From the IMG/VR virus record IMGVR_UViG_2684622552_000006: a stretch of DNA of 38,623 nucleotides. One strand, 5' to 3'. Made by a program: the position numbers and the translations under genes. Shown piece by piece: positions 26,733 through 34,850 of this stretch. This DNA comes from a virus. Taxonomy: Duplodnaviria; Heunggongvirae; Uroviricota; Caudoviricetes. The number at the start of each line of letters is the position of its first letter. Position 1 is the stretch's first letter. The notes beneath the pieces were generated by a model. The model made no database searches. It saw only the letters and a program-made list of their open reading frames with translations, and was not told where the DNA came from.

Positions 26733-27341
26733 CTACTGTAATCGTTCCGAACGTAAATGCGGCAATACCCTGCTCCACTTATTATCCTGCCAAGGCTGGA
26801 ATTTTACATGTGCCGTTTCTCTGGCAAGGATTTCGCGCGCCTTATGTAGTATCTGGGGATATTCTTGCTCGATAGAAGTAAAGCGCCCGGCCTCACGATG
26901 CTCTGCTACCTGAAGAAGTGGAGTAACATTCTGGCAGGCGGTTAACATCACATCACTTGCTCGCCATAACCAAGCAAGTGTGCAAAGTTCGTTATCAGTG
27001 AATTGTTTTGTGATTGGGGATTGTTGAATTTCTCGATCGAGAATATCCAGCACCCAGCGGCGGAATTCTTTGGCCACAGGAGTACGAGCAAACATGGCGA
27101 TCAAATGGGCTCCGCGAAGGCTAAATACTCGAGACTCCTGCATTCCACGAGGGGTGGTCACTTTGACCCCCCTTGTCATCATATCTGTAAATTCATCTGA
27201 GTGACGAGAGTAAATGCGCTGAACTGCTTTATCGTCCGCATATTCCAGAGCTAAACCAACTTCAGTGGCAGTAAGCCAAATTCTGTTATTGTGGCAAATT
27301 GGGGCAAACGTCGTTTTGTGGAATGCTAATTGAGTAGTCAT
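26733..27341 (-). CDS. Bro-N domain protein (antirepressor-like)
   Basis: N-terminal AFHKTTFAPICHNNRIWLTATEVGLALEY resembles Bro-N / KilA-N type domains (from memory); ATG 27341 preceded by GAGGTGAT. Confidence 0.55.
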   Translation of the reverse strand: MTTQLAFHKTTFAPICHNNRIWLTATEVGLALEYADDKAVQRIYSRHSDEFTDMMTRGVKVTTPRGMQESRVFSLRGAHLIAMFARTPVAKEFRRWVLDILDREIQQSPITKQFTDNELCTLAWLWRASDVMLTACQNVTPLLQVAEHREAGRFTSIEQEYPQILHKAREILARETAHVKFQPWQDNKWSRVLPHLRSERLQ

Positions 27342-27497
27342 AGTATCACCTCATCAGGTTAACCATCACCACCAACGACGCCAATCGACTGGTGGTGAAC
27401 TGTGCAAGGTTGGCGTAACCGGCTACTCAAACCCGGCGCTTCCGAAGAAGCCCTCACACAGCCCACCATAATTTGGGCATAGCCGTGCTTAGCGCAC

Positions 27498-27578
27498 AAA
27501 AAAACCGCTTAACGCGGTATGCGTTGAGTAGTATCCCGGGACGCCAATCCCGTGTGCCGATTTTGCGGCAACGCACAG
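27498..27578 (-). ncRNA. Candidate small RNA (promoter to terminator unit, about 75 nt)
   Basis: Minus-strand sigma70-like promoter (TTGACG, 18-nt spacer, TATATT; plus coordinates 27603..27608 and 27579..27584). Predicted transcript folds by eye into a closing stem GCGUUG/CAACGC around two hairpins, then a short GC stem plus T-run terminator (27498..27518). No ORF of 60 aa or more. Confidence 0.3.
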
Positions 27579-27835
27579 AATATAGCGCCGGATAAATCTT
27601 GTCGTCAACCTATAAAATGGCGTCTGCGAACGGCTCCATAACACGATACTGCATGAGCTTTATAAGGTTATGTTCCGTAAAAGTTGTATGTAGATCTCGG
27701 TACATTACAATTGAATCTTAATGAGTGGCAGACGCACTATAATAATGAAATAACGCATCATGGAAAAATGTTTAGCAGATTAACGCAAATGGGCACGTTA
27801 CTTGATGGAAAGTGCATTTGAGCCGAGAGAAACTT

Positions 27836-27920: not shown

Positions 27921-28256
27921 TTATGCCTTGCCAACATCCTCTCGCTTACCAAACATATATCCTAAAGAAAGGGTTAACAAAGGTGAAAATGTAGACCAAG
28001 TTTCTTTAATAATATCAACACAACCTTGACCATTATTATTCCACAAATCATACACACATAATATAAAAATTATGGCGCTATACATATAAAGTGTGTAGGT
28101 TATTATTTTCCAGACAATACTATTTTTAGCATTTTCACCTTCACCAATCGTCTTAGCTATTTCTCCAGAGGACGCCAGACCTTTAGCGGTATTGCTAAAT
28201 TGCCCTGAGGGGGAAGCAACGTAAGTATTTTCATGTTGATCATTAAATGATGACAT
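27921..28256 (-). CDS. Hypothetical membrane protein (one predicted TM helix)
   Basis: 111 aa; hydrophobic stretch IVWKIITYTLYMYSAIIFILCVYDLW; ATG is 1 nt after the upstream stop (TAA-C-ATG); visibly AT-rich. Confidence 0.5.
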   Translation of the reverse strand: MSSFNDQHENTYVASPSGQFSNTAKGLASSGEIAKTIGEGENAKNSIVWKIITYTLYMYSAIIFILCVYDLWNNNGQGCVDIIKETWSTFSPLLTLSLGYMFGKREDVGKA

Positions 28257-28257
28257 G

Positions 28258-28614
28258 TTAATCCTTTATGATGTTAATAATTACGACCCTGCTGGTTTTA
28301 TTTACTGTCTGTATCCATACTGTTAGATAGTGCTGTACATTATCCACAATATAGAAAGGAAATGGTTCTAAAATACCTTCACCCAAACCATTCTTGAAAT
28401 TAATGAATGATACAGTATAAGACTGCCCGCCATCGCTTGGACCAGCTTCATATCGAGAAGATTTATCATCATCATCATATCTAAATGTCATATGAAATTT
28501 TTTATCATCGAACATTTTCAATGTTATACGATCATCATTATTATGAATGAGCAATGTCTTCGAATAAACAACAACACGATTACTAATTAATGTTTCTTTG
28601 ACTATATCATTCAT
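28258..28614 (-). CDS. Hypothetical small protein, first gene of the AT-rich two-gene operon
   Basis: ATG 28614 with AGGTGG 5 nt upstream (the track start at 28623 is GTG); Asp/Lys-rich; visibly AT-rich. Confidence 0.5.
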   Translation of the reverse strand: MNDIVKETLISNRVVVYSKTLLIHNNDDRITLKMFDDKKFHMTFRYDDDDKSSRYEAGPSDGGQSYTVSFINFKNGLGEGILEPFPFYIVDNVQHYLTVWIQTVNKTSRVVIINIIKD

Positions 28615-28643
28615 TTTAGCCACCTATAAAAAATAATCCTATC

Positions 28644-34064: not shown

Positions 34065-34850
34065 ATGAGTACAGCACTCGCAACGCTGGCAGGGAAGCTG
34101 GCTGAACGTGTCGGCATGGATTCTGTCGACCCACAGGAACTGATCACCACTCTTCGCCAGACGGCATTTAAAGGTGATGCCAGCGATGCGCAGTTCATCG
34201 CATTACTGATCGTTGCCAACCAGTACGGCCTTAATCCATGGACGAAAGAAATTTACGCCTTTCCTGATAAGCAGAATGGCATCGTTCCGGTGGTGGGCGT
34301 TGATGGCTGGTCCCGCATCATCAATGAAAACCAGCAGTTTGATGGCATGGACTTTGAGCAGGACAATGAATCCTGTACATGCCGGATTTACCGCAAGGAC
34401 CGTAATCATCCGATCTGCGTTACCGAATGGATGGATGAATGCCGCCGCGAACCATTCAAAACCCGCGAAGGCAGAGAAATCACGGGGCCGTGGCAGTCGC
34501 ATCCCAAACGGATGTTACGGCATAAAGCCATGATTCAGTGTGCCCGTCTGGCCTTCGGATTTGCTGGTATCTATGACAAGGATGAAGCCGAGCGCATTGT
34601 CGAAAATACTGCATACACTGCAGAACGTCAGCCAGAACGCGACATCACTCCGGTTAACGATGAAACCATGCAGGAGATTAACACTCTGCTGATCGCCCTG
34701 GATAAAACATGGGATGACGACTTATTGCCGCTCTGTTCCCAGATATTTCGCCGCGACATTCGCGCATCGTCAGAACTGACACAGGCCGAAGCAGTGAAAG
34801 CTCTTGGATTCCTGAAACAGAAAGCCACTGAGCAGAAGGTGGCATCATGA
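34065..34850 (+). CDS. bet: Red-beta single-strand annealing protein
   Basis: 261 aa, essentially identical to lambda Bet as recalled ([66 protein letters not shown]...). Confidence 0.95.

Follow-up and report, generated by a model that had tools for sequence, protein, structure and literature searches.

The closest described relatives of the locus analysed here are the isrK region of Gifsy-1 in Salmonella and the immI region of phage P1. In Gifsy-1, the isrK promoter drives a short terminated RNA as well as a translationally silent read-through mRNA, isrK-orf45-anrP (Hershko-Shalev et al. 2016, PMC4825925), and IsrK supplied in trans raises anrP translation 139-fold (PMC4825925). The helix between IsrK and “orf45”, termed b-I, was proven by the compensatory pairs G28A/C162U and G31A/C159U, and the region downstream of IsrK gives rise to STnc1160, a stable RNA made by processing (PMC4825925). 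The Gifsy-1 authors explain activation by remodelling of the read-through mRNA together with translation of orf45 that is coupled to anrP; constitutive expression of STnc1160/orf45 gave no relief of IsrK toxicity (PMC4825925). Hfq binding and trans-activation of antirepressor translation are known only for Gifsy-1 (PMC4825925). In P1, the C4 RNA represses icd/ant, according to Citron and Schuster (1990) as cited in PMC8198154 and to the annotation of record NC_005856, which lists promoter, a1, b1, c4 (77 nt), a2, b2, icd and ant in that order. Our naming of the pairing sites follows the P1 convention and is taken from this annotated record.

The window, a 38.6-kb stretch of DNA considered at its full length, is an E. 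coli lambdoid prophage that carries a comparable cassette in its nin region; all features described below lie on its minus strand. The covariance-model scan that the first-pass annotation had named as a check was run with Rfam over the whole window, using the curated gathering scores, and returned exactly two matches, both on the minus strand, both full length, and both above threshold. RF01394 (isrK) matches 27570..27498 with 58.7 bits against a gathering score of 50 (E = 3.2e-10, model positions 1-77 of 77), and RF01695 (C4) matches 27473..27388 with 74.5 bits against a gathering score of 45. The resulting order is promoter, IsrK (with a1 and b1), terminator, C4 (with b' and a'), a2 and b2, and the antirepressor gene. 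We consider it very likely that the IsrK-family small RNA is the first unit of a self-contained P1 immI-type cassette, controlling an antirepressor as a decoy of C4. Taken by itself, the transcript is unexceptional within a family that is curated and has been studied by experiment, and is in this sense already known. Switches of this three-part kind, with IsrK as the presumed decoy, a C4-type antisense RNA and an antirepressor gene, serve many temperate phages in the control of prophage induction. What the present analysis establishes for this locus is the family membership of both RNAs, the architecture of the cassette, and the three-way covariation of its pairing sites.

The architecture recurs widely. 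A BLAST search against phage genomes gave 212 records with related sequence, and in all ten phage loci examined (PhiR26_1, VT2-Sakai, phiV10, a Klebsiella phage, YYZ-2008, EC.W1-9, an Stx2c phage, phiv142-3, phi296, and Stx2_KH16-043) Rfam finds isrK and, some 20-25 nt further on, C4. Every one of these loci whose record has annotation also shows a gene of the antirepressor type downstream. A pattern scan of viral contigs added many further loci, bringing the total to 97 distinct modules. Covariation was counted on a MAFFT alignment of 55 diverse representative modules, to which all pairing percentages and counts of changed pairs below refer, with slid registers as the background. For the Rfam-type structure, composed of IsrK hairpins 1 and 2, the terminator and the three C4 helices, 95.3% of cells are paired, compared with 35-48% in the slid registers, and 22 pairs have both sides changed.

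The small RNA itself is about 75 nt long and occupies 27498..27572, as defined by the Rfam match together with an alignment to Gifsy-1 IsrK, from which a start site at G27572 (~27572) is predicted. Its promoter, as found by a promoter scan, comprises a -35 hexamer TTGACG at 27603..27608 and, after an 18-nt spacer, a -10 hexamer TATATT at 27579..27584. This near-consensus promoter, already pointed out from the letters of the sequence, is indeed present: it is a 10/12 match and the top site in a 2-kb scan, and at least 90% of the 55 homologous modules keep the two key bases of the -10 hexamer, its second-position A and sixth-position T (A27 and T31 in the first row of the alignment). The GC-stem/T-run terminator expected about 75 nt further on is found at 27518..27498, where a Rho-independent ACCGC-GUUAA-GCGGU stem-loop runs into a U-run; the U-tract is invariant in the alignment, and the stem is 79% paired with 3 pairs having both sides changed. 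Between promoter and terminator, the two anticipated hairpins appear in the minimum-free-energy fold and are both supported by covariation. Hairpin 1 (UGCCG CAAAAU CGGCA, 27555..27570) is 92.5% paired, with both sides changed in 4/5 pairs, and hairpin 2 (CGGGA UUGGCG UCCCG, 27537..27552), which presents a1, is 91.6% paired, with both sides changed in 3/5.

One element of the first-pass model did not survive the comparison. The helix GCGUUG (27574..27569)/CAACGC (27526..27521), proposed to close the RNA around its two hairpins, is complementary, but its 38.6% pairing in the 55 homologues equals the slid-register background of 34-41%, and we reject it as a feature of the family. It folds only if the RNA starts at 27576, being absent from the minimum-free-energy fold with a start at 27573 or 27572, and part of its 5' arm falls ahead of the start aligned with Gifsy-1. 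A second count against it is that such a helix would cover the b1 site. Thermodynamic folding, likewise named as a check, shows the two hairpins and the terminator; the folding energy is unexceptional, with z = -1.4 to -2.4 (z = -1.4 for the short RNA). The support for IsrK comes from the covariance models and the comparison of homologues, rather than from folding energy.

These modest energies, along with the fact that promoter-like sites are no more frequent than in shuffled sequence (5 found compared with 5.3 expected in the 2-kb scan), are what could be said for a chance co-occurrence of promoter-like and terminator-like sites in a non-coding gap that yields no functional RNA. Against this stand the two covariance-model matches above curated thresholds, the conservation of the -10 bases and the U-tract and the covariation of all stems across 55 modules from many phages, and a cassette boundary which falls at the -35 hexamer (see below). 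We regard the chance explanation as effectively refuted.

The second RNA of the cassette, the C4-family antisense RNA at 27388..27473, was missed in the first-pass annotation, although it is the direct pairing partner of the small RNA. It starts 24 nt downstream of IsrK and sits between the IsrK terminator and the Bro-N/P22AR-C gene. Pairing in its three helices amounts to 98-100%, and many of the pairs have both sides changed. Set in register with the c4 RNA annotated in P1, the mature C4 is predicted to comprise 77 nt, at 27467..27391. In Gifsy-1 its counterpart is STnc1160/“orf45”, as follows from placing the published positions on the covariance-model matches. There, isrK lies at 34316..34240 (overlapped by a match to the c4-a1b1 family) and C4 at 34214..34131, followed by anrP; G28 and G31 fall in a1 (UUG28GCG31U), C159 and C162 in a' (AC159GCC162AA), and the “first AUG” (A107) is the conserved AUG at the 5' end of C4. 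From the positions of the mutants and of this AUG we conclude that “orf45”/STnc1160 is a C4-family RNA, and that helix b-I is the pairing of a1/b1 with a'/b'.

A positional counterpart of orf45 is found in the ORF list of the window, where 36 codons run from the same conserved AUG at the C4 5' end (27359..27469) to a stop UAA at 27361..27359, 17 nt ahead of the antirepressor AUG. As a conserved small protein this ORF was rejected: stops and frames vary freely, the ORF being between 3 and 47 codons long across the 55 modules or continuing into the following gene, and a Pfam search with it gave no match. So variable an ORF at the C4 AUG fits an RNA, not a protein. The same had been noted for Gifsy-1, where the nucleotide sequence of orf45 is conserved and its amino-acid sequence is not (PMC4825925). 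No ORF separates the C4 element from the antirepressor gene in the window.

The relation to P1 is visible in the scores as well. The P1 immI leader reaches 51.0 bits on c4-a1b1 and 35.1 bits on isrK, the latter below threshold, and it has a terminator-like hairpin; together with the order of the sites, these scores identify IsrK as a homologue of the P1 a1-b1 leader. Conversely, RF03163 (c4-a1b1, described as “a1, b1 targets of C4 antisense RNA”) matches the 5' half of the window's IsrK at a relaxed threshold, with 39.6 bits, under its gathering score of 46.7.

The pairing sites explain the repeated motif from which the first-pass annotation had started. An exact search places the 9-mer GATTGGCGT at 27549..27541, in the loop region of IsrK hairpin 2, and at 27386..27378, in the loop of a hairpin in the Bro-N leader, and these are the only two copies in the window (chance expectation 0.42; at least two copies arose in 5/100 shuffles). 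As both copies have the same sense, they cannot pair with one another. From sequence complementarity, both 9-mers are instead predicted target sites of the C4 junction ACGCCAA: the core UUGGCGU of the first, a1 (27541..27547), and that of the second, a2 (27378..27384), are each complementary to a' (27410..27416), the junction that follows C4 hairpin 2, and a' covaries with both. The leader hairpin itself, CACCACC/GGUGGUG at 27367..27397 with a2 in its loop, is 86.4% paired and has 4 pairs with both sides changed. The C4 closing stem uses the 5' arm of this hairpin as its own 3' arm, which makes the two structures mutually exclusive.

A second pair of target sites, overlooked in the first reading, is formed by the motif CUACUCAA. 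One copy, b1, lies in the single-stranded 3' part of IsrK (27524..27531) and is complementary to b', the hairpin-2 loop of C4 (UUGAGUAG, 27423..27430, which reads CTACTCAA on the plus strand at the same coordinates); the other, b2, covers antirepressor codons 2-4 (27330..27337) and matches the same loop. The motif occurs only three times in the window, in the sense orientation at b1 and b2 and as its reverse complement inside C4. Within IsrK, a1 and b1 are 9 nt apart and, with the intervening CCGG, make up a nearly continuous complement of C4 of about 30 nt. The core of the earlier proposal, a small RNA regulating the adjacent Bro-N gene via a shared loop motif, is thus supported, both by the full-length IsrK match above threshold and by the precedent of Gifsy-1, in which IsrK controls antirepressor translation (PMC4825925); it was incomplete in lacking C4 and the second target pair.

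Covariation between the sites is clear for the a set. Pairing is 95.8% in the a1:a' helix and 96.0% in the a':a2 helix, and in each of them 6/7 pairs have both sides changed. Among the 97 distinct modules the junction site takes the form of 19 distinct strings, which shrink to about a dozen true variants when shifts of register and matches apparently due to chance are discounted; roughly half of the modules have the type ACGCCAA/UUGGCGU. The C4 hairpin-2 loop, b', is more diverse, with 36 variants among the 97. For this loop, counting pairs by alignment column against b1 and b2 was dropped, with only 42.8% and 36.8% paired, respectively; loops of 8-15 nt with indels misalign, and for this reason we used an alignment-free test of cognate pairs in place of column counting. 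In this test 59% of modules have a perfect loop match of at least 7 nt to their own b1, compared with 5% for non-cognate combinations, and 87.5% have one to their own b2, compared with 9%.

This pattern bears on the idea that IsrK depends on Hfq and works in trans mainly on mRNAs of the host core genome, without any link to the neighbouring antirepressor gene. In favor of it are the family's “Hfq binding RNA” label in Rfam and the precedent of other prophage small RNAs, such as AgvB and AsxR, which target host RNAs (PMC12197685). However, it is with the neighbouring C4 and leader, and not with any fixed host sequence, that the variable positions of IsrK covary, and 36 variants of the b site sit badly with a conserved host target. 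We consider host mRNAs very improbable as the main targets, and host targeting is in any case compatible with the preferred reading, in which IsrK acts on C4.

Duplex energies are in keeping with a specific contact where the relevant segment is taken by itself: the C4 segment and IsrK form a duplex of -32.6 kcal/mol, as good as which none of 300 shuffles was found. With RNAduplex on whole molecules, the C4:IsrK energy was equalled or beaten by 19/300 shuffles and the C4:leader energy by 11/300, values which are noisy because GC-rich stems pair promiscuously and which, for the leader, come from a program that cannot model the bipartite contact of a2 and b2. Energy matrices of cognate against non-cognate duplexes gave the cognate ones an advantage of just 3-4.7 kcal/mol.

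The final gene of the cassette (26733..27341) encodes a protein of 202 aa with a Bro-N and a P22AR C-terminal domain, recognized by Pfam (PF02498, Bro-N, 4.4e-10; PF10548, P22_AR_C, 4.9e-16) and by PHROG (245, “anti-repressor Ant”, 4.8e-55). On these matches the protein downstream of C4 is predicted to be antirepressor-like. Its ribosome-binding region (27330..27352) consists of the Shine-Dalgarno sequence GAGG at 27352..27349, the AUG at 27341..27339 and, at 27337..27330, b2. The positions of a2 and b2 are such that both sites flank the Shine-Dalgarno sequence and the start codon. In the window b2 follows just after the AUG, and in most homologues it overlaps the Shine-Dalgarno sequence. With b2 off the Shine-Dalgarno sequence, the strength of repression could differ.

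Taken together with the known systems, this arrangement suggests how the cassette may work. The isrK promoter would yield chiefly the terminated RNA of about 75 nt, and a leaky terminator would pass some transcripts into C4 and the antirepressor gene. C4 would probably be excised from the read-through transcript, its 5' end being generated by RNase P as in P1. The a' (ACGCCAA) and b' (UUGAGUAG) sites of C4 would then pair with a2 and b2 of the antirepressor mRNA and, since these flank the Shine-Dalgarno sequence and start codon, we propose that the pairing leaves the mRNA untranslated. Because IsrK holds a1 and b1 in a tight complement of C4, we further propose that it is a target mimic: in cis it would lock the read-through RNA, and in trans, when abundant, it would occupy a' and b' and so free the ribosome-binding site of the antirepressor, which in turn would inactivate the prophage repressor and promote induction. 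For the window, expression, the IsrK start, C4 processing and Hfq binding are inferred, as are the direction in which the effect runs and what the antirepressor targets. The wording “decoy for C4” or “sponge” is our own synthesis of the P1 and Gifsy-1 models and not a published result, since the Gifsy-1 authors invoke coupling between orf45 and anrP and saw no relief by STnc1160.

A rival account would differ on the steps in trans. If the leader were purely a cis-acting element or attenuator, the terminator would do no more than limit read-through into C4 and the antirepressor gene, a1 and b1 would work just within the read-through transcript, and the short RNA would be a by-product devoid of trans activity. 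The P1 record labels a1 and b1 merely as “putative” target sites, cis mutations in Gifsy-1 isrK raise basal anrP translation (PMC4825925), and the terminator, with its 5-bp stem, is modest, all of which would suit such an account. Against it stand the 139-fold rise in anrP translation caused by Gifsy-1 IsrK in trans, the loss of trans activity in the G28A and G31A mutants, and the stability of terminated IsrK as an RNA species in Salmonella (PMC4825925), and the “Hfq binding RNA” label given to the family by Rfam points the same way. We judge a cis-only role improbable, and favor IsrK as a decoy that also acts in trans.

The surroundings of the cassette indicate that it moves as a unit. In the near-identical, annotated ET358 prophage, repressor/cro-like genes, a gene with a YdaT domain, replication genes, a DUF6864 gene and a small ORF are followed by an IS481 remnant, the cassette, ybcN, ninE, rusA and Q; candidates for the repressor in ET358 are helix-turn-helix genes that lie upstream of its replication genes. 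Homology with other cassette-carrying prophages sets in at 27610, 2 nt before the -35 hexamer, and on account of this edge the unit of promoter, IsrK, C4 and antirepressor gene can be said to behave as a mobile mosaic cassette. Among 5426 complete E. coli genomes, 308 match the region, 135 of them over at least 80% of its length. Neither of the two RNAs is listed by PGAP in its annotation of near-identical E. coli prophages, so that such cassettes are easily overlooked, and a literature search found no paper specifically on this E. coli cassette. PADLOC, applied to the two upstream proteins and the downstream 118-aa protein, recognized no known defence family, and inspection of the promoter by eye for a LexA-box-like CTGT-N8-ACAG saw none.

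The 540-bp interval that had appeared “ORF-free” is therefore composed of an IS481 remnant and a pair of curated RNA genes, by which an antirepressor, and with it probably prophage induction, is gated. Its significance lies in the annotation of the locus and not in new biology. Such novelty as is left may reside in a combinatorial specificity code and in possible cross-talk between prophages. One could imagine the a and b sites forming a combinatorial “address code”, in which the IsrK and C4 RNAs of co-resident prophages cross-talk via a shared a site and are insulated by b. We regard this as speculative and rather doubtful; if true, it would mean RNA-level networks of cross-induction or cross-immunity among prophages, would make IsrK a general anti-antisense sponge (a role of which we found no statement in the P1 or Gifsy-1 literature), and would turn the variant in the window, with its b2 in coding sequence, into a differently tuned member.

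The immunity of P4 is named as an analogue in PMC4825925. Its CI RNA (seqA, seqC) is, like C4, a processed leader small RNA that pairs with repeated sites on both sides, but it causes premature transcription termination of replication genes and not a block of antirepressor translation (PMC4825925). The Rfam scan of the window contained no RNA family of the P4 type, and the resemblance is one of logic only.

The immI region of P1 and P7 shares with the window the order of elements and an antirepressor as the final gene, the placement of a' at the junction after C4 hairpin 2 and of b' in the hairpin-2 loop, the position of a2 and b2 on either side of the ribosome-binding site of the first downstream gene, and the length of the mature C4, which is 77 nt in P1 and is predicted to be the same in the window. 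The two differ in that icd, needed for ant expression in P1, intervenes between b2 and ant only there; without icd, b2 in the window comes to lie inside the antirepressor coding sequence. The window promoter, unlike that of P1, has no known C1 operator, and the P1 leader, under the isrK threshold, has not been described as a separate small RNA. P1 is moreover a plasmid prophage, whereas the window is a lambdoid chromosomal one.

Gifsy-1 departs from the window mainly in its specificity and setting. The b specificity is UCACCG in Gifsy-1 and CUACUCAA in the window, and b2 lies on the Shine-Dalgarno sequence in the former and after the AUG in the latter. The stop codon of orf45 overlaps the start codon that follows it (AUGA) in Gifsy-1, whereas the 36-codon counterpart in the window ends 17 nt before the antirepressor AUG. 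The two antirepressors share little similarity (blastp E = 0.006 over about 50 aa). The window has its cassette between P and ninB, Gifsy-1 downstream of Q, and isrJ follows the cassette in Gifsy-1 only, none being detected by Rfam in the window. In its RNA architecture, on the other hand, Gifsy-1 closely resembles the window: the small RNA has its own promoter, two 5' hairpins, a single-stranded 3' segment and a terminator, the a1 loop GAUUGGCGU is identical, IsrK is complementary over about 30 nt to the element downstream, and this element, of the C4 family, begins about 25 nt further on and is followed by an antirepressor gene. IsrK/orf45/STnc1160 of Salmonella, the c4-a1b1 motif of Rfam and immI of P1, which are treated apart in the sources, are thus one homologous module with co-varying specificity sites.

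The two specificity sites of the C4 antisense RNA, judged by their variation across the 97 distinct IsrK-C4 modules compared (alignment A1 and loci L012-L126), evolve at very unequal rates: the junction pair UUGGCGU/ACGCCAA is common to about half of the modules (52/97), whereas the hairpin-2 loop occurs in 36 variants. The closing stem of C4 (window 27367..27473, minus strand) has a 3' arm, CACCACC, with two possible partners, one being the C4 5' arm GGUGGG... and the other a downstream GGUGGUG, with which it would form a hairpin presenting a2, the C4 target in the antirepressor leader. Covariation was found for both pairings, and the read-through RNA is thus likely to contain a structural switch that has been conserved.

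One virus (IMGVR_UViG_2671181028_000005; locus L038, 9289..11266, minus strand) carries three units of about 656 bp in tandem, each composed of an IsrK-like leader, a C4 element and an ORF of about 120 aa. The ORF protein is near-identical across 3/3 units, and the a'/b' specificity pairs differ among them, with three kinds in three units; the whole resembles an array of orthogonal RNA switches that arose by duplication.

Upstream of the isrK promoter, the counterpart of window 27616..27821 in the near-identical prophage of E. coli ET358 is annotated by PGAP as a frameshifted IS481-family transposase fragment on the opposite strand, and most of the window's "ORF-free" interval is therefore, by this correspondence, IS remnant. 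Position 27610 marks the start of homology with other prophages bearing the cassette. A two-gene unit (27921..28623, minus strand) lies in the stretch from replication gene P to the cassette and encodes a DUF6864 protein along with a 111-aa protein that matched no family; PADLOC returned 0 matches for the unit. In the cassette-bearing phage PhiR26_1 the equivalent slot is occupied by PD-lambda-1, and in strain 118UI by a DUF4041 protein; this differing content suggests that the slot is a variable one, for morons or defence genes.

Finally, the phage P1 immI leader, from promoter P1c4 to c4 (L132 12231..12312 = NC_005856 48230..48311), scores 35.1 bits with the isrK model and contains a terminator-like hairpin followed by a U-run. 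The annotation of NC_005856 includes no short IsrK-like RNA; the hairpin, U-run and score together suggest that P1 may also produce one.
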